From positions 1 through 61,509 of the IMG/VR virus record IMGVR_UViG_3300025759_000004: DNA of 61,509 bases; one strand, 5' to 3'. The stretch comes from a virus (taxonomy: Duplodnaviria; Caudoviricetes). Under the pieces are notes generated by a model. That model was not told the DNA's origin, did not search any database, and was given only the letters and a program-made list of their open reading frames with translations. The first letter of the stretch is position 1; each line of letters starts with the position of its first letter. This document shows positions 1-17,838 of the stretch, one piece after another. A program made the translations under genes and the position numbers.

Positions 1-127
1 ACCAACGAAACTTATTAAGATCTGCAGTAGTCTTTAGATCAATAATAAGCTTTTCGTCGTGATTAACAATATCAGCTTTACCTTTCCATTTTAAACCTTC
101 AAGCTCTGTAATACCTGGTCTTTCATA
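1..127. repeat. Terminal direct repeat, copy 1 (identical to 61383-61509); circular-assembly overlap
   Basis: Exact 127-nt match between the two ends; 127 is a common assembler k-mer and the repeat lies inside a gene. Confidence 0.95.
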
Positions 128-490
128 TTCTACATTTATACCACGTATTAAATCTTTGCAAACATCGTTAGCTAAGACTTTATCAGTCATTAGATCGATT
201 TGATCAACCTCGTGTTGTAGTAGACATAATTCGCCGCCAGACATCTCTTTATACGCTTTAGTGTTTCTAGTACTAGCATCGATAATCTTATACTTTTTAA
301 GCTTATCAGGTTCTAGTATAGCCGTGTGGAAATAACCACCAACTAAAAAAGCAGAGCGAGCTTCTTGTTGCTTTCCTAAAGCTAAAGGGTTTGTAAGTAA
401 TGTAGAAATATCAGAATTACTAAGGTATTGTTTTCCAAATTCACCATAATAATGTTCATCATTTTCTAACTTTTTTAATACATCTTCCAT
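1..490 (-). CDS. RecE/exonuclease VIII-like PD-(D/E)xK exonuclease, 5' part; continues across the junction to 61147
   Basis: Manual translation from ATG at 490: MEDVLKKLENDEHYYGEFGKQYLSNSDI...FLVGGYFHTAILEP...KGKADIVN...IIDLKTT; start overlaps the ERF stop (TAATG). Confidence 0.85.
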   Translation of the reverse strand, partial: MEDVLKKLENDEHYYGEFGKQYLSNSDISTLLTNPLALGKQQEARSAFLVGGYFHTAILEPDKLKKYKIIDASTRNTKAYKEMSGGELCLLQHEVDQIDLMTDKVLANDVCKDLIRGINVEYERPGITELEGLKWKGKADIVNHDEKLIIDLKTTADLNKFRW

Positions 491-1038
491 TATAGAGTAT
501 TTAACGCACCTTCTACTTCCGCAGAAAGATTGTACTTTTGCTTAATAGCTTCTAATTTACCACCTGCTGCTATGTATTGAACCGCTTTGTCATATGCTGG
601 ATCTTTTTTTGAGGTTATGGTACTTTTAGTTTTAGCTTTTGGCGCTTTGCCGTGAGTATTTGACGCATCTGAGTCTTGCGTGTCGTCTATTAGGAATAAA
701 TTACCTAATGCATATTTCTTTCCATAGCTCGATGCCGACCCAAACTGCTGAGGTGTTTGCATACCTTTCTGATTAAGATCAACGCCAACTAACGCCGTAG
801 CGTGTATAGCATTTTCGCCATCAGAAATTGTAGCAGTCGAACAAATAATTGGTAAGCCATAGGCTTCAGTCAATTGTTCATTGATTGTTACTGATACTCC
901 TAACTCTAACAGAAAGGGTTTTGTTGCTTCGAGAATGTCTTCGGCTGATCTGAAGTAATATTTGCCGAATGAGTTAAACCTACTTTTTTTCGATTTAAAC
1001 TTTGTCTGGATCGTAGCCAGTTTTTCGTTTATGGTCAT
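490..1038 (-). CDS. erf: ERF-family ssDNA annealing protein
   Basis: N-terminal NSFGKYYFRSAEDIL and GSASSYGKKYALGNLFLIDD motifs; adjacent to the exonuclease. Confidence 0.88.
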   Translation of the reverse strand: MTINEKLATIQTKFKSKKSRFNSFGKYYFRSAEDILEATKPFLLELGVSVTINEQLTEAYGLPIICSTATISDGENAIHATALVGVDLNQKGMQTPQQFGSASSYGKKYALGNLFLIDDTQDSDASNTHGKAPKAKTKSTITSKKDPAYDKAVQYIAAGGKLEAIKQKYNLSAEVEGALNTL

Positions 1039-1101
1039 ATGGTTTATTGTTTTGGTATATTAATATAATTACACATTAGAATATTGTTTTACATATTTAA
1101 C

Positions 1102-1863
1102 TTAAAGGAAATCAATAACTTGCGAAGCGTCTACGTTTTCAATTAATTTTTCAACAGCTTGTTTTTTAAGTTCTGAAACGCGTACATAAGCACTGGTTCC
1201 TTTTATATTTAATTTATCAGCTATATAGTTGGCTGAATGCTTTTCGCAATCTAAGCCATAAGATAGTCTTAATACTTCGTATTCAATAGGTGTTAAATAT
1301 TTTTTCATTAAACCTTTTAGGTAAATATTAAGTATATGTATATTATATGGCTCTGATTTATCTGCAATTTGATAGATCATATTTTCTTCTTCATCATCAG
1401 TTTGAACAGCGTCTATACTTAAAAACATACTATTAAAAAACATTGCAACCATCTTTTTGTCTTTTGGATTTTTACGTATTTCGTTTAATTTATGTTCGGG
1501 TATACGCATGTTACCTCTAGCCATATCTATTCGTCTTCTTAAATGCCCCTTAATTCTTTTTGAAAAAAACGATTTTAATGTTTTTTCAATGTCCTCAGAT
1601 TCAATTAATTTTTCCCAATCTAATTTATCTACCGCTCTAATTAAGGCTTCAGATCCTATTTGTATTAAATCATTAATTGTTAATACGCCAGAAGCTTGTT
1701 GAGTTGTTGAAAATTTACGGGATAAGTTTTCTACAAGTGGTAAGAATTTAACTATAAGCTCATCTCGTGAGTATTCATCCCAAAACTTGCCTTCTAAATT
1801 AGATATAGAAGTCTTAAGATCTTTTTTATATCTTACGTAATTTTGTACGTTATATTTTTTCAT
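1102..1863 (-). CDS. Phage sigma70-family RNA polymerase sigma factor
   Basis: Region 2 (LPLVENLSRKF...DLIQIGSEALIRAVDK...RIKGHLRR...RIP) and region 4 (LTPIEYEVLRLSYGL...IADKLNI...VSELKKQAVEKL). Confidence 0.85.
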   Translation of the reverse strand: MKKYNVQNYVRYKKDLKTSISNLEGKFWDEYSRDELIVKFLPLVENLSRKFSTTQQASGVLTINDLIQIGSEALIRAVDKLDWEKLIESEDIEKTLKSFFSKRIKGHLRRRIDMARGNMRIPEHKLNEIRKNPKDKKMVAMFFNSMFLSIDAVQTDDEEENMIYQIADKSEPYNIHILNIYLKGLMKKYLTPIEYEVLRLSYGLDCEKHSANYIADKLNIKGTSAYVRVSELKKQAVEKLIENVDASQVIDFL

Positions 1864-2480
1864 ATTTGTTGATTAAGTAGTTCTTTTTCTTTTTTAAGTT
1901 CATTACTCATATTTCTGTATATTGTTCGTGTTGAGCATTTTAACGCATCCGCTATTCTAGCTACCGTAATTTTTATTTTATTATCATTTATTAATAACAT
2001 TGCATCATATATTTCATTTTCTGATATTTTAGATCTACCAACTAATTTGCCAACTATAGAAAGCTTTTGTCGCATATCTAATCCAGTGTTGTCTTTAAAT
2101 ATAACTTTACGCAACTTATTAGGTGGCGGTTTTTCGAGATCCATTAAAGATACATCGTAAACCATGCTTTGCAATAATTGTTCTGAAACCTTAAATGTTA
2201 CAAATCCATTTTGCTTATTACAAATATATCTAGCAAGCCCATTAAAGCCTTCTTGATCTAATTGCGGGTTAAGATACCATAATACATATAAATGCCATTT
2301 AAGACTTTTATACGTGTTTATTTTGGCGCGTGAAGCAAATAGTGTATAGCACTGATGTGTGCCGTTTTCGTAGTACCAACCCCATTTAAATTTTTCCGTT
2401 GGCTTATCCGTAATAGGATTACGTCTATATATTATACGGTGTATATTTAGGTATTTGGTATTTCTTTCGTATTGTGACAT
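1860..2480 (-). CDS. DNA-binding protein with C-terminal HTH; possible replication initiator
   Basis: ITVARIADALKCSTRTIYR HTH; central segment weakly resembles PriCT-1. Confidence 0.55.
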   Translation of the reverse strand: MSQYERNTKYLNIHRIIYRRNPITDKPTEKFKWGWYYENGTHQCYTLFASRAKINTYKSLKWHLYVLWYLNPQLDQEGFNGLARYICNKQNGFVTFKVSEQLLQSMVYDVSLMDLEKPPPNKLRKVIFKDNTGLDMRQKLSIVGKLVGRSKISENEIYDAMLLINDNKIKITVARIADALKCSTRTIYRNMSNELKKEKELLNQQI

Positions 2481-2519
2481 TAGGTTGTTACTATTTAATT
2501 ATATATTAGCTATTGTCAC
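2474..2519. promoter_or_regulatory. 46-bp inverted-repeat site (putative operator or origin), copy 1
   Basis: GTGACATTAGGTTG-N18(AT-rich)-TTAGCTATTGTCAC; covers the ATG of the HTH gene. Confidence 0.55.
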
Positions 2520-2613
2520 TATGACAAAGCGTATATTATATGGTATGAAATAATTAAAAATGCATATATAGTTATTAAGTATAATAAATAAATTAAGTTT
2601 TCTTTAAACTTTT

Positions 2614-2895
2614 TCATTCAATATTATATTTGCTTTTAAGGTGTTTGATTTTATTAGAAACTATAGCGGCCTTTTCATAATCTTCATTATCTTCAAGACT
2701 TTTTAATCTTTTACTTAAGCGGCTAATTTCTTCATTAACAATATCGATAGTTGTAGTTTCTTTTACTTCAATATCTGGGTTTTCACTTTTAAATTGTTCT
2801 AAATCAGCTTTAAATTCTTGATCGTATTTATTCTGTAGCTCTACAAGTTTGCTTACTATTTTTTCGGCTAATTGATCTATTTGTTTTTCTGTCAT
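2614..2895 (-). CDS. Coiled-coil protein with UVR (UvrB/C)-like C-terminal motif
   Basis: EDNEDYEKAAIVSNKIKHL. Confidence 0.6.
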   Translation of the reverse strand: MTEKQIDQLAEKIVSKLVELQNKYDQEFKADLEQFKSENPDIEVKETTTIDIVNEEISRLSKRLKSLEDNEDYEKAAIVSNKIKHLKSKYNIE

Positions 2896-2896
2896 A

Positions 2897-3118
2897 TTAA
2901 TATAAAATTAGTTTTAATCTTCGATTGTATTTCTTTAAAAGCTTTGCTTTGTTTTCTATATTACCGTGTAAAATAGTTATATTTTTATTAAAGCTATATT
3001 CACCTTTAAAAGATGCTTTTATTATATCACCGTGTAACTCTGCTATTATTTGATGCAGAAACTTTACGTGACCCGCTTTTCTTTTTCGCTGCTTTAATTT
3101 TGTCGTTAATGTTCGCAT
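2897..3118 (-). CDS. Hypothetical protein
   Basis: Tightly packed in the minus-strand operon. Confidence 0.6.
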   Translation of the reverse strand: MRTLTTKLKQRKRKAGHVKFLHQIIAELHGDIIKASFKGEYSFNKNITILHGNIENKAKLLKKYNRRLKLILY

Positions 3119-3606
3119 AATTCGTTGATGTTATGTGGTCGTACAATTTTTTGCTCATTTTTATTTTTTACTGTGTGTTTTTCGTTTTCATAATAATTCC
3201 AGTATGCAATTAAGCTACTGTCTGCTTTGTATTCGTCTGGCATGCATTGTGGTGGCTCAACCCAATCATTACCCTGTATATGTTTAGGAGGTATTGATAA
3301 AAAATCTCTACACTTAATAATAGTAAGGTGCTGTTTGCCGTATCTTTTAGTATATTCTTTACCCAATGCAATCATATGGTCGTATAGCCACATGTACGTT
3401 AATTTAGATCTTCTAGCCCATATTGTGGACGGGTGATTTAAATGTGCTTGCCTATAAGGTACATTAGACTTTTGTTCCGCGTCTCCATAACAATGATGCG
3501 CAGTGCATAACATTTGTGCAGACTCTAATATCATTTTTACTTTATGTTTATCGTAAAAATAACTTGCTGCTTTAGCTGGATCGGGATGTAAATAAAATAT
3601 ATTCAT
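3106..3606 (-). CDS. Pyrimidine-dimer DNA glycosylase / endonuclease V-like protein
   Basis: MNIFYL...DKHKVKMILESAQMLCTAH...HLNHPSTIWAR...EYTKRYGKQH...PPQCMPDEYK. Confidence 0.75.
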   Translation of the reverse strand: MNIFYLHPDPAKAASYFYDKHKVKMILESAQMLCTAHHCYGDAEQKSNVPYRQAHLNHPSTIWARRSKLTYMWLYDHMIALGKEYTKRYGKQHLTIIKCRDFLSIPPKHIQGNDWVEPPQCMPDEYKADSSLIAYWNYYENEKHTVKNKNEQKIVRPHNINELCEH

Positions 3607-3827
3607 TAGTTTATTTTGGTAAATTTAAATTTATTAACAACAAAGTTATTAATGAATTTACCCTTAGACGAAGATTCCGTTAATCCTCGCCAATAAAAGC
3701 GCGGTACATTTAAATATCTATATAAACCTTCGTTTTTAAAGTATATAGTTAAATATTCATCTTTGTTGTTATACTCAGCAAACTCAATAGCTGAAGAGTC
3801 TACTATAATTGTTTCTACTTTGTTCAT
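3606..3827 (-). CDS. KTSC domain protein
   Basis: VDSSAI..AEY....LTIYFKNEGLYRYLNVP......L..SSSKGKFIN. Confidence 0.88.
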   Translation of the reverse strand: MNKVETIIVDSSAIEFAEYNNKDEYLTIYFKNEGLYRYLNVPRFYWRGLTESSSKGKFINNFVVNKFKFTKIN

Positions 3828-3873
3828 AATTTATCTATTTTTATTCGTGTTAAACTTATATTTTAATGGAATG

Positions 3874-4137
3874 CTAATTCTCTTTATACATTCCGTGGTA
3901 TTGTACTTCAAACTCTTCACGTATTTCACGGCCATATGCAGTATTAAAACCATAGCTATGTGTACCTCCTAAGCTCACCTGCTCAATCATAAAATGAAAG
4001 ATTTCTTTAGGGGTATATCCATATTGTTTAGCTACAATTCTGCATGCTTTAGCCATACGTTTTACATTATGACGTAATTCGCCATAGTTTTCGGTTATAT
4101 AATCTTTTATATATTTTTGCGATATTGTTTTACTCAT
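3874..4137 (-). CDS. Hypothetical protein
   Basis: Start overlaps upstream stop (TAATG). Confidence 0.65.
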   Translation of the reverse strand: MSKTISQKYIKDYITENYGELRHNVKRMAKACRIVAKQYGYTPKEIFHFMIEQVSLGGTHSYGFNTAYGREIREEFEVQYHGMYKEN

Positions 4138-4751
4138 TAGTGAAATATTAATCCTACTTTTTTATTTTTACTAAACCATTTTGTTGCCATCAAATCAATA
4201 CTAGAAGCATCCACATAACCGTTAGATACAAGATCGCTATGACTAGAAAAGATTTTGGTGTGTCTATGTTTTCTTTCATTTATTAAATGTTTTTGTTTAC
4301 CTGAATCACTAAATATAATATCGTAATTACTTGGTAATGAAGTCTTTAAGATCATATCTACCATATTGGTATAACTGTAAAACCGTACGTTCGGATTGTG
4401 TATAGCAATCTCTATCCACTTTTTTAGATACGCGGGTGAGTAGTAATCGCCGCTATCATGGACTCTGACGTAGTCAGGTTTCTTCTTACGTATTTCAACG
4501 TTCATAGCTTCAACAAAGTCGTCTGTCTTTGTTAACTGATAACGCTTTTCAAACGCAGGTTTTACGTTAGACCAGATGTAAGCTCCTTTCTTGGCATAAC
4601 AGAATTTAACACAACCGTCAGCCATAGGGCACGTCAGTTTCCCGCTAGCAGATTTGTAGGCAGGAATACCAAAGTTAAAAACCCGGAGCCCGAGTTCTTT
4701 AGATGTTTTTTTAAGTTTACTATTCTGTGTCAGAAGATTCATAGTATTCAA
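4137..4751 (-). CDS. GP88-like, radical-SAM-related Cys-motif protein
   Basis: NSKLKK...TCPMADGCVKFCYA...VRVHDSGDYYS...FYSYT. Confidence 0.7.
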   Translation of the reverse strand: MNTMNLLTQNSKLKKTSKELGLRVFNFGIPAYKSASGKLTCPMADGCVKFCYAKKGAYIWSNVKPAFEKRYQLTKTDDFVEAMNVEIRKKKPDYVRVHDSGDYYSPAYLKKWIEIAIHNPNVRFYSYTNMVDMILKTSLPSNYDIIFSDSGKQKHLINERKHRHTKIFSSHSDLVSNGYVDASSIDLMATKWFSKNKKVGLIFH

Positions 4752-4929
4752 TTATTCGTTCAAAGTCGTCTTCCATATTTACAATGTCCCGCGCATATTC
4801 TAGCACGTCTTTAAATCCAGCTAGTTCATAACTACTGAACTCATATACATCACGCTCTTCGATAGCGTAGATGCAGTCTCTCATGTCTTTTGCCGTATTT
4901 TCGAAGCGACAGTAACTCATATTTCCCAT
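4720..4929 (-). CDS. Conserved phage hypothetical protein (NMSYCRFENT family), acidic
   Basis: N-terminus MGNMSYCRFENTAKD. Confidence 0.7.
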   Translation of the reverse strand: MGNMSYCRFENTAKDMRDCIYAIEERDVYEFSSYELAGFKDVLEYARDIVNMEDDFERIIEYYESSDTE

Positions 4930-4933
4930 AATT

Positions 4934-5200
4934 TTAATCTAATAATACCATATAGGCGGTTGGATTGTTTACTCTGAACCAAGTTAAAGCTCGGTCAAAG
5001 TCTTTAATTTGTTTTGGTGTTATAGTTTTTGGTGCGATAGCCATAACATGCTGCGATCCCATTATGAAATCGTATATAGATAACTCTACATTATTCAGTT
5101 CAAAGCTTTCGCCGCTAAATGGATTGGTTACTACTTCACCTTCGTCATAGATCATACCGTTAAACCACTTAGGTATTTTTTGTTCTTTAATCTTCGTCAT
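4934..5200 (-). CDS. Hypothetical protein (likely start MTKIKEQ)
   Basis: ORF-track start shortened to avoid a long overlap with the upstream gene. Confidence 0.6.
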   Translation of the reverse strand: MTKIKEQKIPKWFNGMIYDEGEVVTNPFSGESFELNNVELSIYDFIMGSQHVMAIAPKTITPKQIKDFDRALTWFRVNNPTAYMVLLD

Positions 5201-5543
5201 TGTCTTGTACTTTAAATACTGATTCAACGTAGTCGCATATTGCTTCTTCAAGATCATCAGTGTAGTTAAATTCTAAATTACTTAGCTCTATGCGGTTGTC
5301 ATAGTTAATTTCAAAGTCGTATTCGTAATTATCTATATTGTTAAAGTCATAATTACCTACAGCTTCATAAACCTGTTGACGTATAGCATCGCGGGTTTCT
5401 TTGGTTATTACTGGTTTGCTTACGTCTTCAAGATCCTGTTTTGCTTGATTAAGTTGCTTAGTTAACTCTTGTTGATCAGTTTCAAATTGAGCTAACGCCG
5501 CTGTTAACTCTTTTACTTTTAGTTCTAGTTGTGCTTTAGTCAT
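5187..5543 (-). CDS. Acidic coiled-coil hypothetical protein
   Basis: ORF in operon. Confidence 0.65.
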   Translation of the reverse strand: MTKAQLELKVKELTAALAQFETDQQELTKQLNQAKQDLEDVSKPVITKETRDAIRQQVYEAVGNYDFNNIDNYEYDFEINYDNRIELSNLEFNYTDDLEEAICDYVESVFKVQDNDED

Positions 5544-5551
5544 AGTTTTAA

Positions 5552-5767
5552 TTATTTATATCCGTGTTTTTCTATTAATGTTAAAATAAATTGCCATACT
5601 TGCAGGTCAGATCGGGTAGATCGTACACAATTTTTAAGTACATCAAGTGATAATCTACCGTCACCACCTTTTCGTATATCTTCATTTAGTTTGCTAATGT
5701 CACGCTGTAAAGTTAGTATTTTACTAAATGATTTGTTATGTGCGCGGTGATAAATATCTTTATTCAT
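5552..5767 (-). CDS. Hypothetical protein
   Basis: ORF in operon. Confidence 0.6.
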   Translation of the reverse strand: MNKDIYHRAHNKSFSKILTLQRDISKLNEDIRKGGDGRLSLDVLKNCVRSTRSDLQVWQFILTLIEKHGYK

Positions 5768-6014
5768 AATCTTTAGAGATTAATATGTTATCGCCGTACT
5801 TAAAATCCCACACTGAAGTTTTAATAAGTTCAAGGTGTGTAAACGTGTATAGCGAACTGATATCGCTAATGGATAGGTCACTATAAAATGTAGTGCTTGA
5901 AAGCGTTTCGACTATAGAGTCAATGACGGCTTTGTACTTTTCGTTTTCAGAAGAATGTAATGCTTCTTTGATTTCAGGTTTTAGTCTTTCGTAAACTGTT
6001 AGTCTTCTACTCAT
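5760..6014 (-). CDS. Hypothetical protein
   Basis: Directly downstream of a promoter motif copy. Confidence 0.65.
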   Translation of the reverse strand: MSRRLTVYERLKPEIKEALHSSENEKYKAVIDSIVETLSSTTFYSDLSISDISSLYTFTHLELIKTSVWDFKYGDNILISKDYE

Positions 6015-6045
6015 TTTAATTTAGTTTTAATTTATTATATTATCT

Positions 6046-6249
6046 TTAGGTGTTCGTGTTAAGCTTATGTTCTAATTCTTCTATAGCAAGCTTGTAACCA
6101 AAATTCATCGCTAATTGCATTAGTAACAGATCGGCTGATCCGCCATTTGATTGTGCAAATCTTTCTAAATAATCTCGATCGTGAGGTGTTGCTACAATAC
6201 CTCTATCCAGCATTCTATACTGGTCTTTAATAAAATTCTCAATGTTCAT
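6046..6249 (-). CDS. Hypothetical protein (start MNIENF)
   Basis: The longer ORF-track start overlaps tRNA-Gln, so the ATG at 6249 was chosen. Confidence 0.6.
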   Translation of the reverse strand: MNIENFIKDQYRMLDRGIVATPHDRDYLERFAQSNGGSADLLLMQLAMNFGYKLAIEELEHKLNTNT

Positions 6250-6269
6250 AATAATTAATTTAAAATTAG

Positions 6270-6342
6270 TTGACTCATCAGGGATCGAACCTGAACTCTT
6301 CTGGACCAAAACCAGACGTGTTACCAATTACACTATGAGTCA
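6270..6342 (-). tRNA. tRNA-Gln(UUG)
   Basis: TGACTCA acceptor stem, anticodon arm TCTGG-TT-TTG-GT-CCAGA, T loop TTCGATC, U1-A72. Confidence 0.93.
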
Positions 6343-6347
6343 TTTAG

Positions 6348-6426
6348 TGGACGTGGCAGGAATCGAACCTGCGTTACCGGCTTTAGGTGACATTCCCCCC
6401 GTTTCCGGTCAAACCATTTCACGCCC
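6348..6426 (-). ncRNA. Minimal tmRNA-like tRNA-like domain (no mRNA-like domain)
   Basis: GGGCGTG/CACGTCC-A acceptor with G3.U70, stemless D loop ending GGTTTGAC, ACCGG/CCGGT helix, AAC then GCAGG-TTCGATT-CCTGC T arm. Confidence 0.7.
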
Positions 6427-6430
6427 ATAT

Positions 6431-6734
6431 TCCCTCACTTGTTTTCAACCTAAAAGGCTTGGTGCTTTGTAGCACATGTTTCCCGCGAGGGACGGCGGCA
6501 CACCGGTATGCGCGCCGGTTTTAGGTATGCTCGTATGTTTTTCGGTCGAGTTACAGCACCACACTCGTGCCCATACCTGTATATTTGAGAAGTGGATAGA
6601 ACTGGAATGTTAGAGATGCACGTCATTTACTAGTATGTACCCTGACTTATACTCTTTTCTCTGTTTATACTATCTTTCACCTTCATCGAGCCGAACCATT
6701 ATCGCCTTTAATCTGGTTTCCAGACTTCTTCTCA
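6431..6734 (-). ncRNA. Cluster of unassigned structured RNA modules
   Basis: GC-rich ORF-free region with closing stems TCCCTCGC/GTGAGGGA, ACCGG/CCGGT, AGGTATG/CATACCT and TGAGAAG/CTTCTCA. Confidence 0.55.
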
Positions 6735-6920
6735 TTTACGTCGCCACGCCCTGTGAACACTAGCAGAGACTTCTTGGCTGACGATTTGTATTGTATTACC
6801 TGTTTTATGCTCAATGATCGGGACATACGAGTATGTTTTAGTTGTTGAGCACTTCACACACGTTTTATATCCCAAATCTAAACGGATCGGGTGTACTTTA
6901 TTTCCACATCTACAATACAT
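6732..6920 (-). CDS. TraR/DksA-like C4 zinc-finger protein
   Basis: CRCGNKVHPIRLDLGYKTCVKC. Confidence 0.6.
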   Translation of the reverse strand: MYCRCGNKVHPIRLDLGYKTCVKCSTTKTYSYVPIIEHKTGNTIQIVSQEVSASVHRAWRRK

Positions 6921-6974
6921 AGTTATTTATTTTTTTTGGTTCATATATATTATCTTTAGGTAATCGTGTCAAAC

Positions 6975-7163
6975 TTATATTTTCCTAGTTTGATGGTACA
7001 TTATTTCGATCGCTCGTTGTAGGGTTTCAGCGTGTATAGCATTGTAGGTATCGCCGTCTGCTTCATACTCAGACAATTGCCAGTCTACGCTATCATACAT
7101 TAAATCTAGTGTAACGTCAGCAACACCTTGTGCTACTTCATTTATGTTTATTTCTTTAGTCAT
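6975..7163 (-). CDS. Small acidic hypothetical protein
   Basis: ORF in early region. Confidence 0.55.
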   Translation of the reverse strand: MTKEININEVAQGVADVTLDLMYDSVDWQLSEYEADGDTYNAIHAETLQRAIEIMYHQTRKI

Positions 7164-7574
7164 AGCTTAATATTTCTTGTAGTTCGCCAAATGTCATTTC
7201 ATCTATTTGTTCCTGTGTATATCCCTCAAACGCTGGGTGATTATACGCTGTTGTCCATGGATTATTCATACTCATAAATTTCTGGGTCGGTGTGCGCCAT
7301 CCACTCGATGTCATTTAACCTAAAACCACGGTCAATAATTACTTCTTCATATCCTTCGTGACTCATACCTTCTAGTACTTCTATACGAGATACGAGGCCA
7401 CTTGCAAAATCTAATATCGTTATATACATAGTGTTCAGTTTTATAAGTTATATTCTTTTCTGTAATGCGACGTGATTTGATCGACGGCTACTACAAATTC
7501 ATCTTCAGTTAGTACACCAGATTTTATTTCTTGTAATGCACAATCTAGTTCATAAAGTAAATGTACCATAATGC

Positions 7575-7784
7575 TTAGAATAATGAGTCATATACTCTTT
7601 CGTTAACAAAATCTCGGTGTTCATCGTTGAGATAGTCGATTTGTTCTTCAGTCATTTCTACCCCGTCGTAATCTGCAGATACTAAGAATGCATCTACAAA
7701 GTCTGGATAATCTGAATGGTCAATACCTTCAAATTCCATATTGTCTATTTTTCCAAAGTCTAATTTGTCTAAATTGAATTTCAT
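7575..7784 (-). CDS. Small acidic conserved phage protein
   Basis: GIDHSDYPDFVDAFLVSADYDG.EMTEEQ motif. Confidence 0.65.
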   Translation of the reverse strand: MKFNLDKLDFGKIDNMEFEGIDHSDYPDFVDAFLVSADYDGVEMTEEQIDYLNDEHRDFVNERVYDSLF

Positions 7785-7803
7785 AATATTTAAGTTTTAA
7801 TAG

Positions 7804-8064
7804 TTAATCGCCTGTCCAGTTGTTATGGTTATTAGCATAGAATGAAGCCGCACCGGAATTGGTTAGTTTTCTTCGGTATTCATATTCAACTCTGTTATCT
7901 AATAACTCATCAATCTTATCTTTCATTTCTTGTTCAGTATCTGCTGGAAAAGAAATAAGGTGATAAGGGTAAAAGTTAAAATACTTACAGGTGTAAGCCG
8001 AGCATTCTTGACCGTTGTACGCGGTCCACTCGTGGTATTCGTATGGTATATTTCTGTGTTGCAT
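7804..8064 (-). CDS. Hypothetical protein
   Basis: ORF in early region; start at MQHRN chosen. Confidence 0.55.
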   Translation of the reverse strand: MQHRNIPYEYHEWTAYNGQECSAYTCKYFNFYPYHLISFPADTEQEMKDKIDELLDNRVEYEYRRKLTNSGAASFYANNHNNWTGD

Positions 8065-8066
8065 AG

Positions 8067-8255
8067 TTACTCCCATATATAAGTTATACCTTTATAATTA
8101 AACCATTCGGTAAGCCCGTCTTGGTCTTTGTTTTCGTCATAGATAAAACCAAAGCGTTTTGGTATAGCACCGATCAAGTAACCTTTGTAATATTTATCGG
8201 TTAGTGCACACGGTTGGCCGTCTTTGTTTTTGAAGAATTTAATGGTTTTTTTCAT
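8067..8255 (-). CDS. Hypothetical protein (start MKKTIK)
   Basis: The longer ORF-track start overlaps a promoter motif. Confidence 0.55.
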   Translation of the reverse strand: MKKTIKFFKNKDGQPCALTDKYYKGYLIGAIPKRFGFIYDENKDQDGLTEWFNYKGITYIWE

Positions 8256-8318
8256 AGTTCTAATTTTTAATTCAGTTATATTATCGTTAGGTGTTCGTGT
8301 CAAATCTATATTTTACCG

Positions 8319-8615
8319 TTAAGCAAAGTTAAATTTTTTAGTATATACTGTTTTACCTGTTACTTCTTGTACACCACCATTCACTGCTTTTACAACAGAT
8401 CGAATTAGGTGTAATGGGGTTTTATAGTCGTATATACAATCTGGTAAATTAGGCCCACGCCATCCACATTGCATGTTACTTATAGCGAAGCTTGTACCGT
8501 GGCTATTGGTGTATTGGTAACCTACCGTTCCGCTCTCGTTTTCGTACACAAATAGTGTTTTAGGGTTTTTTCCACTGCGTTGTGCAGTATTTACTTTAGC
8601 AATTAGTTTTCTCAT
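8319..8615 (-). CDS. Hypothetical protein
   Basis: ORF in early region. Confidence 0.6.
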   Translation of the reverse strand: MRKLIAKVNTAQRSGKNPKTLFVYENESGTVGYQYTNSHGTSFAISNMQCGWRGPNLPDCIYDYKTPLHLIRSVVKAVNGGVQEVTGKTVYTKKFNFA

Positions 8616-8751
8616 AATAATTCTATATTTAATTTGTTAGCAGCGAAGTTCATTAATACTTCGGTATAATATTGTGCATCACCGTGTAGGTTTTCAATAT
8701 ACCCACCTCCGTGGAAATAGTTGAGTGCTTCAATTACTTCTTCTTTCATAG

Positions 8752-9003
8752 TTATGCGGTTTTAAAAGTATTATCGTTGTACATAGTGTGTATGCGGTTA
8801 GAATATTTCTGTGATTCCCATAGTTTAGTGTGAGAATAAGTTCTACCTTTACTACTCGCTTTTTTCATAGGTGTTTTTACCTTATTATACTCTTTTTGAG
8901 TAAATTTAGTACAATAATCTCCGTTTGTTACTTCAATTTGGTGTGTTCGGTTTCGTTGTCTTCGTGAGTTCGTTAAATACTCACACGCTTCTTTCATTGT
9001 CAT
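8752..9003 (-). CDS. Basic hypothetical protein
   Basis: ORF in early region. Confidence 0.55.
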   Translation of the reverse strand: MTMKEACEYLTNSRRQRNRTHQIEVTNGDYCTKFTQKEYNKVKTPMKKASSKGRTYSHTKLWESQKYSNRIHTMYNDNTFKTA

Positions 9004-9090
9004 AATTAAAAGGTGTTACTTTGTTTGCTTATTATTTTAGTGGTACTGTTATTACAGAGTACTTCTGTACTTGTAAGTAATTTCATTACT

Positions 9091-9136
9091 GCGACAATAG
9101 GTTGTTAAGTATTATATAGTAACTAGCTTTTGTCAC
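9091..9136. promoter_or_regulatory. 46-bp inverted-repeat site, copy 2
   Basis: GCGACAATAGGTTG-N18-CTAGCTTTTGTCAC; abuts the promoter motif at 9138. Confidence 0.55.
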
Positions 9137-9187
9137 ATATATTATCGATCGGTGTTCGTATCAAACTTATATTTTTCTGCAATTATT

Positions 9188-9478
9188 CTATTTACCAACA
9201 TTTCTCTTTACCCAGTTAACTATAAACTCTAGTCTTTCTAATTCATTAGGTATAAGAATTCTAGTATAGGTATAGATAGTTACGTCGGTTCTTCCCCTAC
9301 CATGCCATACTCCCGTCCAATACTCATCTTTCGTTTTAACTTTCTTATTGATCTGGTATAATCGGTCTAGGTAGTAATTTGATATTCTAACATAACCTGA
9401 CTTGTAGGATTTTAATTGTCTTCCGTCACTTAGTTGGTATGTAGCGGTACCATTACTATTAATTTCTAATAATTCCAT
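9188..9478 (-). CDS. Hypothetical protein
   Basis: Downstream of a promoter motif copy. Confidence 0.65.
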   Translation of the reverse strand: MELLEINSNGTATYQLSDGRQLKSYKSGYVRISNYYLDRLYQINKKVKTKDEYWTGVWHGRGRTDVTIYTYTRILIPNELERLEFIVNWVKRNVGK

Positions 9479-9651
9479 AATAACTTTTATTTTAGATTCA
9501 CATATATTATCTTCACCGACTCGTGTTAAACTTATATTTTTTTTTCATTCGTATTAAACCTTGATCACCGAAATGCTATACACTTCGTAGTAAACCTTTC
9601 CCGCAGGTGCAGGTGCTATACAATGCTATACACCCTGACCGGGTGCAGCGG

Positions 9652-9741
9652 TTAGTGCCAGGTTGTTTCAGAAGGAGCTGGTCCTAAAAATTCTCTGAAT
9701 GCTCTTAGCTTAAGGATAATGTAGTGACTAAATTTTCTCAT
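9652..9741 (-). CDS. Putative 29-aa peptide MRKFSHYIILKLRAFREFLGPAPSETTWH
   Basis: Manual translation; A-rich start context. Confidence 0.35.
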   Translation of the reverse strand: MRKFSHYIILKLRAFREFLGPAPSETTWH

Positions 9742-9793
9742 TTGTTAAAGTTTTAAAGTTAATAAAGGTAGGTTAAGATTGGGGCGAAGAAGC

Positions 9794-10114
9794 CTACTTT
9801 TCAGTAGACTCTTCAAGTTCGACTCGTTCGATTACAATATCCCTAACATTTGAAGGCATATCGGTTGATTGTGACCAGTAGCCTCTTTTGATCCAGCATG
9901 GCATTATGCTTAGCTTAGGTAACATTACTTTAAGCACTTCGTCGTGATTGTAGGTGATCTTTTGGTTTTTGTTGTTAACAAAGGTGATGATTTGATTTCG
10001 GCCATACCAAGACTTTCGGACAACAAAGTTCTTGCGAGTAATTGGTGGAAAGATTTCAGATAATTGCTCTTTTGATAATTTGGAGATTGTTTGGTTTAAT
10101 AATTCAGTGTTCAT
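9794..10114 (-). CDS. Hypothetical early protein
   Basis: Downstream of two tandem promoter motifs. Confidence 0.7.
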   Translation of the reverse strand: MNTELLNQTISKLSKEQLSEIFPPITRKNFVVRKSWYGRNQIITFVNNKNQKITYNHDEVLKVMLPKLSIMPCWIKRGYWSQSTDMPSNVRDIVIERVELEESTEK

Positions 10115-10332
10115 AATTTAAAATTTAATGGTTTATATTTATTTGTTATTTATTTTCAGTTATATTATCATTTACTATTCGTATCAAACTTATATTTAGT
10201 TATTTTAATTAATTTCATTTTTATATTTCTTTTATTTTTTATTCAACTATATTATCTAAATAGATCCGTGTTAAACCTATGTGCTATACGCGTTGCTATA
10301 CACGCCTTCGGCGTGCTTGGGGCTAGCTGAGG

Positions 10333-10491
10333 TTAGAACACCTCGAGCTGTTTAAGTAAGCTTTGATATGGGCTTGGAGTTAGATTGCGCTTTAATATAT
10401 CCAAAGATTCAATTAAGCCTTCTTTAGTTACATTACCGTTTAGGTATTGATTTAGATCATCAATGGTTGAGAGAATTAGCATTTTTTCCAT
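10333..10491 (-). CDS. 52-aa hypothetical protein (MEKMLILST...QLEVF)
   Basis: Manual translation; below the ORF-track cutoff. Confidence 0.5.
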   Translation of the reverse strand: MEKMLILSTIDDLNQYLNGNVTKEGLIESLDILKRNLTPSPYQSLLKQLEVF

Positions 10492-10544
10492 GTTATTAGT
10501 TTTAATTGTTATACATTTTAAGTTGGTAGATTTGGGGGTTTAGT

Positions 10545-10715
10545 TTATTTATATTGTTGTATTAATTTGTTTATATCTTTTAGATTTGAAAAATGGTAAT
10601 GGTATATAACTTGATCATTTGTTATATTGTAGACAGTAAAGTCATACATTTTGTATTTAGGTGAATAATAGATTTTGAAATAAGTTTTTGTTAAAGGAAA
10701 ATTGTTATTAAGCAT
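10545..10715 (-). CDS. 56-aa hypothetical protein (MLNNNFPLT...)
   Basis: Manual translation; directly downstream of a promoter motif. Confidence 0.5.
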   Translation of the reverse strand: MLNNNFPLTKTYFKIYYSPKYKMYDFTVYNITNDQVIYHYHFSNLKDINKLIQQYK

Positions 10716-10839
10716 TTTAGTTTATTTTAAATTAATATTTATATTTTAAATTCAACTATATTATCTATATTTACTCGTATTAAACCTATATGCTACGAAT
10801 TTGCTATACACGCCTTCGGCGTGCTGGAGCTGGTCCAGA

Positions 10840-10998
10840 TTAGAATATCTCGGACCAATGCTGCTCTTCCTCCTCCCAAAGATCGTCCCATTCAGATTCA
10901 GGCAGAATTACTGTTATGATGCCATCTGAATCAATACGATAGTTTATTTTGTTTTTGGTTAAATGATTTAGGACTTCAGGTTTGATATAATTTTTCAT
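10840..10998 (-). CDS. 52-aa protein with acidic C-terminus (MKNYIKPE...WDDLWEEEEQHWSEIF)
   Basis: Manual translation; first gene of the minus arm, downstream of a promoter motif. Confidence 0.55.
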   Translation of the reverse strand: MKNYIKPEVLNHLTKNKINYRIDSDGIITVILPESEWDDLWEEEEQHWSEIF

Positions 10999-11337
10999 AG
11001 TATATTAATATTTATATTTTAAATTCAACTATATTATCCTGATCCACTCGTGTCAAACCTATATGCTATACAGCTTCGCTGCGCTACGCTCCGCTCCGCG
11101 CTTTAACCAGGCCACAAAAACCCCGATAGCACCAGCAAAATCCAGCAAAAAGGCAAAACCTTTTCAAAGTATCGAAAAAATGGAGGGGGACCCCTTCACG
11201 AAAAACCTATTTTCTATTTAGGACCAGCCGTTTAAAACTAGCGGTAACCCAATAACCCTCTATAAGCAACGTATTTTTAGTTACAGCAGTAAAAAATTAA
11301 AAAAATATGTGAGTATATACATTATAATACTAATCAT

Positions 11338-11595
11338 ATGGCTAAACCAAAGAAAAAGGGAGGACCTAAGCAAAAATTAAGCCCTCTAGCTGCTCGAAGA
11401 AAGGCTAGAAGAGACTATTTATACGCAATGACTCCTCGTAGAAGACGAATGAAGGCAGAAAGTCAGCGTGCAAACTGTCCAAAAGGCCAAGATTACGACC
11501 ATAACACTAAAAAATGTGTTTCTTCCTCTCATAATCGCGGTGGAACACAGGCAAAACATAAAAAAGACGGTACAAAAGCCGAAAGAAAAGCATAA
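11338..11595 (+). CDS. Small basic protein with possible HNH-like remnant
   Basis: Very K/R-rich; GQDYDH...SHNRG. Confidence 0.55.
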   Translation: MAKPKKKGGPKQKLSPLAARRKARRDYLYAMTPRRRRMKAESQRANCPKGQDYDHNTKKCVSSSHNRGGTQAKHKKDGTKAERKA

Positions 11596-16037: not shown

Positions 16038-17594
16038 ATGTCAGACGCAATTGTCAAAAACTTGAACTTTGGAACAGAAGCTAGAGATCAAGTATTTAAA
16101 GGAATAGAAAAACTCACTAAAGCTGTTAGCTCCACGTTGGGAGCTAGCGGCCGATGTGTGATGTTAGAAGATAACACTGGAAAACCCATTATTACAAAAG
16201 ACGGTGTTACTGTAGCAGATTCAATAATCTTGCTAGATCCAGTTGAAAATATGGGTGCTACACTTTTAAAAGAAGCTGCTCGCAAAACAGTGCAAGAAGC
16301 GGGTGACGGCACAACAACGGCAACGGTACTAGCTCACTCTATACTAAGTGAAGCTTATAAAGTTGCTGATAAAACAAACTCAAGAGAGTTGAAAAACGGT
16401 ATTAATAAAGCTGTTAAAAATGTAGTTAAGTTTTTACAGTTAGTATCTGTAGACGTTAAAGGCGATATGATAGATCAAATTGCTACAATATCTACAAACA
16501 ACGACGCTAAACTTGGAAAAGTTATAGCGGATGCTTTTAGAGCGGTTGATAATACAGGTGTGGTTATGATGGAAACGGCTTCAGATGGTAAAACATATGT
16601 TGAAGTTGTTGATGGTGTCCAATATGAAAAAGGACTTAAGAACTCACACTTTATAACTAACAAAGCTAATAAAACGGCTGAGTTGGACAAACCGCTAGTG
16701 CTTTTATTAGAATCCCCAGTGGACACAATAAGACAGATTCAGTCTGTGCTAGAGTACGTAATAAAAAACAACAAACCTTTGCTTATTATAGGCGATTTAG
16801 AACAAGGTGTTTTATCAGCTCTGGCAATGAATAAAATGAAAGGCGCTATTAAAGTAAATGTTATTGATGCTCCAACATACGGTATCAATAAACAACAGAT
16901 GCTTCAAGACCTTTCGCTTTTAACTGGTGCCACTATCATAAACGAAGACCTTGGAGATGATATGGATATGATACAGCCAGAACACTTAGGAACTTGCATT
17001 AAAAGTGTTACTTCTCACGAAGATACAGTTTTACAAGTTGAAGAACCTTCTGAAGAAATATTAAGTGTTATAAAAGAATTAAAACAACAAGTATTAGAAG
17101 AAAAAAATCCTAATAAAGTTGTAAAGCTGGAAAAAAGATTAGCAATGCTTTCTGCTAAAATAGCAATTGTAAAAGTGGGTGCTAATTCAGAAATAGAACT
17201 AAAAGAAAAAACAGATAGGGTAGAAGATGCTATCTGTGCTACTAAAGCTGCTATTAAAGAAGGGATTGTTCCTGGTGGTGGTATTGCTCTATTAAATGCC
17301 GCAACAAATTTAAAAGCTAAGTCTATTGGTGAAACAGTTTTGCTAGAAGCTATTAAAGCGCCTTTTAAAACTATACTTGAAAACGCAGGTGTTGATAATG
17401 TTAAAACACCAACTAGAAAAGGACAAGGTTATAACGTGGTTACGGGAAAAATGGTAAATATGACAAAGTCAGGTATTATAGATCCTCTACTTGTTACCAA
17501 GAGCGCTCTTCAAAATGCAGCTTCCGTAGCGACTACGATTTTATCTACAGATTGTGTAATTAATAATCTAAGAATTAATGAAGGCAATAGGTAG
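16038..17594 (+). CDS. groEL: Chaperonin GroEL
   Basis: ITKDGVTVA, AGDGTTTATVLA, EGIVPGGG, GIIDP motifs. Confidence 0.97.
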   Translation: MSDAIVKNLNFGTEARDQVFKGIEKLTKAVSSTLGASGRCVMLEDNTGKPIITKDGVTVADSIILLDPVENMGATLLKEAARKTVQEAGDGTTTATVLAHSILSEAYKVADKTNSRELKNGINKAVKNVVKFLQLVSVDVKGDMIDQIATISTNNDAKLGKVIADAFRAVDNTGVVMMETASDGKTYVEVVDGVQYEKGLKNSHFITNKANKTAELDKPLVLLLESPVDTIRQIQSVLEYVIKNNKPLLIIGDLEQGVLSALAMNKMKGAIKVNVIDAPTYGINKQQMLQDLSLLTGATIINEDLGDDMDMIQPEHLGTCIKSVTSHEDTVLQVEEPSEEILSVIKELKQQVLEEKNPNKVVKLEKRLAMLSAKIAIVKVGANSEIELKEKTDRVEDAICATKAAIKEGIVPGGGIALLNAATNLKAKSIGETVLLEAIKAPFKTILENAGVDNVKTPTRKGQGYNVVTGKMVNMTKSGIIDPLLVTKSALQNAASVATTILSTDCVINNLRINEGNR

Positions 17595-17838
17595 AAATAT
17601 AATAATAAAAAAAGCTAAAGAAGGTACCACTAAAACAAAAGGAGGCCTTCTTTTAGCAGAAACACATAGAGACGATATAAGATATGTAGAAGCAACAGTT
17701 ATTTCGGCTGGCGATGAAATAAACAGTTTAAAAAAAGGTAGTGTCATACTTTATGATAGACACGCTGGACATAAAATAGAAGTTGAAAAAGAAGCATATC
17801 ACGTTATTAAAGTACAAGATGTTGTAGTTGTGTTATGA
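17578..17838 (+). CDS. groES: Co-chaperonin GroES
   Basis: TKTKGGLLL mobile loop; ATVISAG...KKGSVILY. Confidence 0.85.
   Translation: MKAIGRNIIIKKAKEGTTKTKGGLLLAETHRDDIRYVEATVISAGDEINSLKKGSVILYDRHAGHKIEVEKEAYHVIKVQDVVVVL

Follow-up and report, generated by a model that had tools for sequence, protein, structure and literature searches.

Can a phage carry a transfer-messenger RNA (tmRNA) that has kept its tRNA-like domain (TLD) and has no mRNA-like domain at all, and if so, what might such an RNA do during infection? The question is raised by a 79-nt element in the early region of the virus record IMGVR_UViG_3300025759_000004, the whole of which was analysed and is called the window here. The record is complete at 61,509 bp, with direct terminal repeats, and searches with PHROGs and Pfam point to a podophage-like, virulent-type genome that includes a terminase, a portal, a 2,545-aa virion protein, a primase-helicase, ribonucleotide reductase, thymidylate synthase, MazG, Erf, and a sigma-factor-like protein. 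The phage also encodes a GroEL (16038-17594, plus strand, 518 aa; PHROG 5725, E 8e-134) and a GroES-like Cpn10 (17578-17835, plus strand, 86 aa; Pfam PF00166). The terminase is 65% identical to that of an assembled freshwater-spring podovirus, 44% identical to those of the Flavobacterium Elemovirus phages, and 37-39% identical to those of Cellulophaga podophages. Because these terminase kin are phages of Flavobacterium and Cellulophaga, the host is likely a member of the Flavobacteriia. In a 3'-end pattern scan of genome contigs, the matches listed span many phyla and indicate no host.

The element had been read from its letters alone as an alanine-identity TLD, and the layout claimed for it on the minus strand agrees exactly with the sequence, as does the 5-nt distance claimed between its end and a neighboring tRNA-Gln gene. 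Its parts are as follows, in window coordinates.

6348..6426, minus strand: gene for a TLD-only tmRNA-like RNA, 79 nt with discriminator A73 as its last base
6420-6426 with 6349-6355, minus strand: acceptor stem of 7 bp, GGGCGTG with CACGTCC, with G3 opposite T70 (G3:U70)
6410-6419, minus strand: stemless D loop of ten unpaired bases (GG within it, TTTG at the end, then AC)
6405-6409 with 6376-6380, minus strand: helix 2 of 5 bp, ACCGG/CCGGT
6381-6404, minus strand: 24-nt loop closing helix 2
6373-6375, minus strand: 3-nt linker, AAC
6356-6372, minus strand: perfect T arm, GCAGG TTCGATT CCTGC
6348, minus strand: discriminator A73
6343..6347, minus strand: 5-nt spacer, CTAAA, between A73 and tRNA-Gln

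The minimum free energy (MFE) fold of the element recovers the acceptor, the helix, and the T arm, and its folding energy is unremarkable when taken alone (z -1.72; 15 of 200 shuffles fold equally well). The sequence has neither a D stem nor a 7-nt anticodon loop. The mRNA-like domain, with its resume codon, tag frame, stop, and pseudoknots, is also absent, and only 35 nt lie between the two halves of the TLD. A tiny tag frame within the 24-nt loop was considered and rejected, since the middle-domain frames of relatives and of the forms found in the wider census described below have no common start or stop when compared by eye.

Existing RNA models recognize the element in part. The Rfam tmRNA model (RF00023) matches it with 40.7 bits and an E value of 1.8e-16 across the whole genome; both ends of the model are matched (positions 1-374), and 35 nt of the element stand for 326 model positions. 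The score lies below the curated gathering cut-off of 47 bits and was obtained with permissive thresholds. The Rfam tRNA model (RF00005) gives 26.7 bits, short of its cut-off of 29, and ARAGORN reports no tRNA and no tmRNA there, a silence that fits the missing D stem and the missing 7-nt anticodon loop. The initial annotation had named these programs as its check, and the outcome is mixed: the preference for tmRNA over tRNA stands at 40.7 versus 26.7 bits, so that the better tRNA score that would have spoken against a TLD was not seen, while support from either cut-off or from ARAGORN did not materialize. A control shows how far the tmRNA score may be trusted. RF00023 was run over 101 Bacteroidota genomes and found a full tmRNA above the cut-off in 97 of them, and the same run lists many 76-77-nt matches at 31-43 bits; the six of these that were fetched are all tRNA-Ala according to ARAGORN. 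Since tRNA-Ala reaches such scores, a sub-threshold tmRNA score alone is not diagnostic of a TLD, and the case therefore rests on anatomy and on homologues. That the match is beyond chance follows from its E value together with conservation in related phages.

Relatives were collected by using a DNA-binding-protein gene at 3106-3606, 2.7 kb downstream of the element, as a handle, and 80 related viral loci were fetched. A covariance model, R1, was built from 44 copies that a simple descriptor script had found first. This model scores the window's element at 65.3 bits and tRNA-Ala at 21-29 bits. Strong matches (at least 47 bits; range 47-74) occur in 42 of the 80 loci; if only loci with 5.2 kb or more of sequence upstream of the handle gene are counted, the figure is 36 of 55. 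They are always on the gene strand and 1.3-4.8 kb upstream of that gene, and three loci carry two copies, which brings the number of copies to 46 with the window's own. The remaining 19 of the 55 loci with enough upstream DNA have no strong copy, so the element is an accessory gene.

What these copies hold constant is the alanine identity set. Of the 46 copies, 45 have G3:U70 and every one has A73, to be read with the fact that the descriptor pre-filter required pairing and fixed G2, G3, C71, and C72, so that the percentage paired is inflated by selection; position 70 was free to be C or T in that filter and is T throughout. The trinucleotide CTA immediately 3' of the discriminator is common to the element and its homologues, following A73 directly in 43 of 46 copies. 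Exceptions with A3:U70 came from the R1 search at two loci, L056 (50 bits) and L083 (31 bits), and charging is thus not universal. The initial annotation had staked its reading on the retention of G3:U70 and on covariation across related phages, and both were found. Pair 4:69 takes all four Watson-Crick forms (CG 23, GC 9, AU 8, and UA 1 among 41 distinct rows), and four of the five T-stem pairs show double changes, with a covariation score reached by none of 500 shuffles. Shifting the pairing partners along the alignment abolishes the pairing. The middle domain, by comparison, is hypervariable: total lengths run from 65 to 175 nt, and one copy has a hairpin of about 96 nt inserted in its tetraloop. 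In the window's subfamily, AAAC or TAAC precedes the T arm in 26 of 41 copies.

Outside this set of relatives, simple similarity searches reach little. When 50,697 phage records were searched with the element by blastn, no match exceeded 42% coverage and only tRNA T arms and attP cores were hit, and in a megablast of positions 5500-7500 only the tRNA-Gln of Cellulophaga phages matched. No strong copy was found by R1 in five terminase relatives, cultured or assembled (MW202828, Elemovirus elemoE, phi46:3, Calle_3, and Gundel_1). Weak matches were returned for MW202828 (32.8 bits), for Gundel_1 (31 bits, with G3:C70), and for the 3' end of the full tmRNA of Calle_3 (25.6 bits), and nothing was returned for elemoE and phi46:3. 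ARAGORN called no tmRNA in the 80 related loci. At one of them (L069, 2069-2165) it calls a 97-nt tRNA-Gln(CTG). The alignment shows a mini-tmRNA copy there whose middle domain is long, so that the tRNA call is probably false and of a kind that could enter annotations.

Does the family descend from tmRNA or from tRNA-Ala? The first 22 nt of the element are on average 74% identical (maximum 87%) to the 5' ends of 31 Bacteroidota tmRNAs and on average 54% identical (maximum 59%) to six tRNA-Ala genes; the measure is a coarse one, and the 3' halves fail to tell the two apart. The 31 tmRNAs start with GGGG(G/A)TG, a few bases, and TGG.TTCGAC, and they end with GGAC, the T arm, and CA(C/T)CTCC A. 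In one subgroup of the phage family the acceptor, GGGGGTG/CACCTCC, is exactly of the host type, and the D loop is only a few changes away from those of host tmRNAs. From these comparisons we conclude that the family derives from tmRNA and that the window's subfamily, with its GGGCGTG acceptor and AAC-type linker, is the more diverged branch. The claim of a tmRNA TLD without an mRNA-like domain is thereby upheld by the tmRNA-over-tRNA score, by the nearer 5' end, and by the retained G3:U70, and we are highly confident that the element is a TLD-only tmRNA homologue and a real phage gene. The further suggestion that it might be one half of a trans-acting system found no support. A two-piece arrangement was tried and rejected, as the permuted-tmRNA model gives 15.1 bits (E 0.66), the halves stand in normal order, and a whole-genome Rfam search found no other tmRNA part elsewhere.

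The architecture is also not confined to these phages. A first pattern scan of a viral collection found two further mini forms among 15 loci, on contigs unrelated by name. A second scan, for a tmRNA-type 5' end with a T loop within 45 nt of it, returned at least 120 viral loci; acceptor and T stem are well paired in at least 112 of these, and at least 85 of the well-paired loci are distinct. Among the 85 distinct matches listed, G3:U70 and A73 are each present in 84, and lengths run from 59 to 85 nt. Some of these census loci lie on the same contigs as the related set (e.g., L301, L341, and L359). The census includes acceptor types that are probably typical of several host phyla, the attribution being made by sequence comparison for Bacteroidota and DS6A (discussed below). 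Among the 120 matches listed, ARAGORN makes no call in 116, calls two D-armless tRNA-Ala, and calls two poorly paired loci tRNA-Cys. Two census contigs (L302 and L325) hold 68-71-nt units with a tmRNA-type stemless D loop and a 7-nt loop that bears the alanine anticodon TGC according to ARAGORN; these D-armless tRNA-Ala look-alikes are intermediate between a TLD and a tRNA.

Alignment of the matches listed yields what we call the common form, a description of this census and not a published definition. It has a 7-bp helix 2 with strong covariation (one pair is GC 31, AU 24, UA 21, and CG 3 times), and an inner motif that recurs and is also found in DS6A, namely a bulge rich in A and, after it, a small GCC...GG hairpin. 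Directly before the T stem, 52 of the 85 distinct forms listed have GGAC, as do 31 of 31 host-phylum tmRNAs. A sister subgroup in the same phage clade has the common form, with its 7-bp helix 2, inner hairpin, and GGAC. The window's copy departs from the common form: its helix 2 is 5 bp long instead of 7 bp and is closed by a 24-nt loop, AAC stands in place of GGAC, and the inner AAAGCC-loop-GG hairpin of DS6A and most listed census forms is missing. With no inner hairpin, and with AAC for GGAC, its contacts to SmpB may differ.

A TLD-only tmRNA has been described in one phage before. Mycobacterium phage DS6A is listed as 'TLD only' among phages with ssrA (Hudson, Lau and Williams, PMC4131195), its sequence being described there as little more than a TLD, and the RNA is named Phage__Mycobacterium.9 in the 2025 tmRNA database paper (PMC11915505). 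The initial annotation knew such forms mainly from mitochondria, a picture that the published DS6A case (PMC4131195, PMC11915505) corrects. We located the gene, which is unannotated in its record, at 28478-28560, where RF00023 gives 43.2 bits, close to the 40.7 bits of the window's element, and R1, which was built without DS6A, finds it with 32.1 bits (E 8e-4). Both RNAs are phage-encoded, about 80 nt long, and without a tag frame; both combine a 7-bp acceptor that bears G3:U70 with a D loop lacking a stem, a short helix 2 capped by a small loop, and a T arm, and in both A73 is followed by CTA. The window's element thus shows the DS6A-type layout, in which both tmRNA ends stand in normal order with a stem-loop of less than about 100 nt between them. 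The two differ in that DS6A is an actinophage, whereas the window is a Flavobacteriia-type podophage of unrelated lineage and host phylum. DS6A also has an inner AAAACC-loop-GG hairpin where the window's copy has only its 5-bp helix 2 and 24-nt loop, and its gene lies between protein genes, whereas the window's element lies 5 nt before a tRNA gene.

Other relations are more distant. Bacterial one-piece tmRNA (RF00023) has the same acceptor, D-loop, and T-arm layout and the same alanine identity, but carries pseudoknots, a resume codon, a tag frame, and a stop where the element has about 35 nt in place of 326 model positions. Cellulophaga phage Calle_3, a distant relative by its terminase (36.6% identity), has an annotated full-length tmRNA of 360 nt (PMC8776804). 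The element has G3:U70, A73, and the T arm in common with tRNA-Ala, but not the D stem and anticodon loop. Organellar tmRNAs without a coding sequence (CDS), namely the jakobid-type mitochondrial forms and the plastid tmRNAs of about 65 bp in Mallomonadaceae, are TLDs without a tag frame as well, and differ, by the description given in PMC11915505, in being cellular genes with a dedicated SmpB and, in mitochondria, in being usually permuted. The kind is therefore already in print for one phage, and what is added here is its occurrence in another phage lineage, in a divergent subfamily whose middle domain is hypervariable. In literature searches, from which subscription journals were largely absent, no report was found of a wide phage family of tag-less mini-tmRNAs, nor any of this kind linking tmRNA with Cellulophaga or Flavobacterium phages.

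If the element is a gene, its surroundings may indicate how it is expressed. The neighboring features are these.

6269..6342, minus strand: tRNA-Gln(UUG) (ARAGORN; Rfam tRNA 66.8 bits)
6427..6500, minus strand: module B, a structured leader directly upstream of the element (MFE fold with an 8-bp closing stem and two small hairpins)
6931..6994, minus strand: promoter-like repeat of direct-repeat family D1, the nearest copy upstream of the element
6021-6084, minus strand: next D1 copy, downstream of the element, which also matches TTAACA-17-TATAAT

Family D1 is a 64-nt sigma-70-like repeat with nine copies (3812-11078, within an early region of 1-11,400) that stand before small early ORFs. Its minus strand shows a TTGACA-like box set at a fixed distance from an A/T-rich -10-like box, and these sequence features suggest that the repeats are probably early promoters. 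Between the two copies listed lie a 62-codon ORF (6732-6920), about 300 nt of leader, the element, tRNA-Gln, and a small ORF, and no minus-strand terminator-like site was found between them. The copy at 6931-6994 may thus be the early promoter of a unit that comprises the 62-codon ORF (orf62), the leader RNAs, the TLD, and tRNA-Gln, and the tRNA-Gln(UUG) is probably co-transcribed with the element. The window's tRNA-Gln also has CTA at its 3' side, and tight spacing to a tRNA recurs in relatives, with 5 nt between the element and a tRNA-Met in L067, L077, and L091 and 3 nt to a tRNA-Gln in L065. From the promoter-like repeats, the lack of a terminator, the tRNA spacing, and the CTA trailers, we infer early co-transcription and release by tRNA-processing enzymes.

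Metatranscriptome contigs assembled from relatives (four runs, 90-99% alike) place most cover on 6585-7100, with high depth over the ORF and leader. In one of them, 800 nt long, the last 40 nt at the 3' end of a relative's element are joined to the upstream block, which is no proof of transcription of the element or of its ends. At 6903 and 6935, a short way downstream of the 6931-6994 repeat, contigs from relatives run into sequencing adapter, and these ends give a weak hint of transcript 5' ends.

The roughly 300 nt upstream of the element (6427-6700, minus strand) are non-coding, conserved, and mosaic, being made up of blocks with closing stems of 6-8 bp that are shuffled between relatives. 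The blocks include module B, a GGTATG...CATACC block, and a block with the TAAATGAC motif. Mosaic leaders also precede the elements in L025, L026, L028, L031, L033, L036, L046, L060, and L073, and different modules directly abut the element in different relatives. Module B itself stands upstream of the element in L028, L060, L036, L046, and L033, and its consensus fold from six sequences is a three-way junction of 19 pairs, one of them compensatory.

Two further kinds of tRNA-like unit were seen in the relatives. A second class of smaller units, about 40-76 nt long (L056 3925-3963, L024 3574-3638, L066 3715-3790, L068 111-186, and L058 1688-1757), shows an acceptor-like stem of 6-7 bp that lacks G3:U70, a bulge resembling a D loop (ATGGTT), a T arm of the GAGTTCGATTCTCAC type, and discriminator A followed by CTA. 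These units give weak R1 matches of 22-26 bits, all on the gene strand, and none was found by R1 in the window at E values up to 1. A third unit ends in TGAGG TTCGA(A/T)T CCTCA CTAGTTA C, that is, a T arm, an acceptor 3' strand, and discriminator C. It occurs at L024 6172-6266, L027 6024-6133, and L082 7241-7295, and just upstream of the mini-tmRNA in L029, L036, L037, L046, L056, L065, and L068.

What, then, might a tmRNA without a message do? On the sequence evidence we favour a charged, ribosome-entering competitor of host tmRNA over a passive sponge, because G3:U70 and A73 are under clear selection. In this RNA, all that lies past the base of helix 2 in bacterial tmRNA, including the pseudoknots, resume codon, and tag frame, is replaced by a short stem-loop. 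The RNA would be transcribed early in one unit with tRNA-Gln, as its position suggests; a tRNA-gene-like context and the common CTA trailer point to excision by host tRNA-processing enzymes and the addition of CCA, and the near-invariant G3:U70 and A73 point to charging with alanine by the host alanyl-tRNA synthetase (AlaRS). Host SmpB and EF-Tu would then bind it. Host SmpB is proposed because the phage encodes none: Pfam searches of 72 ORFs and PHROGs searches of 27 ORFs turned up no SmpB, no integrase, and no enzyme of tRNA modification or repair. The charged RNA would enter stalled ribosomes in competition with host tmRNA and accept the nascent chain, and having no template, it would leave no degradation tag. 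Published work in favour of this reading includes peptidyl transfer to a TLD-only tmRNA in vitro (Shimizu and Ueda 2006, cited in PMC3895274) and the inhibition of tmRNA by a TLD-like molecule (Mao et al. 2009, cited in PMC4131195 and PMC11915505). The net effect would be that host trans-translation tagging is short-circuited or inhibited during infection, and the phage may gain through protection of truncated products, faster ribosome recycling while host mRNA decays, or a blunted host response. Confidence in identity and mechanism taken jointly, that is, in a phage-encoded, tag-less, alanine-charged mini-tmRNA that competes with host tmRNA, is evenly balanced.

A bolder variant, which we consider unlikely, is that the mini-tmRNA is a working minimal rescue RNA, charged with alanine, escorted by host SmpB and EF-Tu, and able to take the chain off stalled ribosomes. 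The chain would be released untagged through drop-off with peptidyl-tRNA hydrolase or through an alternative rescue factor, ribosomes would be recycled fast during host-mRNA breakdown, and the phage's own truncated products would be spared. The hypervariable middle domain, which gives elements of 65-175 nt in the window's subfamily, would on this view be an adjustable module rather than ballast.

Alternatively, the RNA may be a pure sponge that draws host SmpB, and possibly also EF-Tu or RNase R, away from tmRNA, with no need for charging or ribosome entry. The idea of an SmpB decoy is already in print for TLD-only RNA (PMC4131195, PMC11915505): a TLD-like molecule strongly inhibits tmRNA in Escherichia coli, perhaps via SmpB titration (Mao et al. 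2009, cited in both), and it is effective whether or not it can be charged (PMC4131195). A phage without an SmpB of its own, as judged with Pfam and PHROGs, and two relatives with A3:U70 (L056 and L083) are in keeping with this reading. A sponge, however, needs no AlaRS identity set, yet G3:U70 and A73 are almost invariant both in the family and among the census forms listed, while the pairs next to G3:U70 vary freely. We therefore regard titration alone as doubtful.

The tRNA-like shape may instead serve as punctuation that marks cuts by RNase P and RNase Z in an early transcript, the excised RNA having no job of its own. In plant mitochondria, t-elements are tRNA-like processing signals of this sort. 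The element does lie between structured leader modules and tRNA-Gln in an apparent early transcription unit, other odd acceptor-plus-T-arm units occur in the same region of relatives, and a middle domain of such variable length would suit an RNA without a task. These enzymes, however, need neither G3:U70, nor A73, nor a tmRNA-type D loop, all of which are conserved, and the same architecture is present in unrelated phages, including DS6A, in other contexts. Punctuation is accordingly an improbable account. A tRNA look-alike, charged with alanine or uncharged, that works outside trans-translation, for instance as a decoy for a host defence nuclease or toxin directed at the acceptor ends of tRNAs or as an alanine donor kept from decoding, is more improbable still. 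It would make sense of an alanine identity without an anticodon and of the several kinds of tRNA-like unit clustered in these phages, but no linked defence or cell-wall gene was found with Pfam or PHROGs, and the D loop and 5' end are nearer to tmRNA than to tRNA-Ala. Phage att sites often contain tmRNA 3' ends, and the blastn matches to attP cores and scores below both Rfam cut-offs could suggest a functionless leftover of ssrA integration or a decaying tRNA-Ala or tmRNA pseudogene, but this reading is highly improbable and close to refuted, given that both halves are present with perfect pairing and compensatory stem changes, that the same genomic position is occupied in 42 of 80 related loci, and that no integrase was found (Pfam, PHROGs) in a genome with direct terminal repeats.

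A single case of a TLD-only tmRNA would not surprise a tmRNA specialist; breadth, missing annotation, and an invariant alanine identity give the finding its weight. In the related phages the mini-tmRNA is common, conserved, and unannotated. Its near-invariant alanine identity argues that charging matters, something that the plain idea of an SmpB sponge does not require. Because phage-host pairs in the Flavobacteriia are culturable, the function of a TLD-only tmRNA is directly testable there, and the same functional question applies to the CDS-less organellar forms. Should the rescue-RNA variant be true, it would be in vivo proof that a TLD alone rescues ribosomes, and would explain the existence of CDS-less organellar tmRNAs. 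Full-size tmRNA genes are counted by ARAGORN in about 2% of phage genomes (402 of 18,146; PMC9004378). The tag-less mini form escapes this program, which is silent on it in the window, calls no tmRNA in the 80 related loci, and makes no call in 116 of the 120 census loci listed, and phage interference with trans-translation may thus be much commoner than annotation shows.
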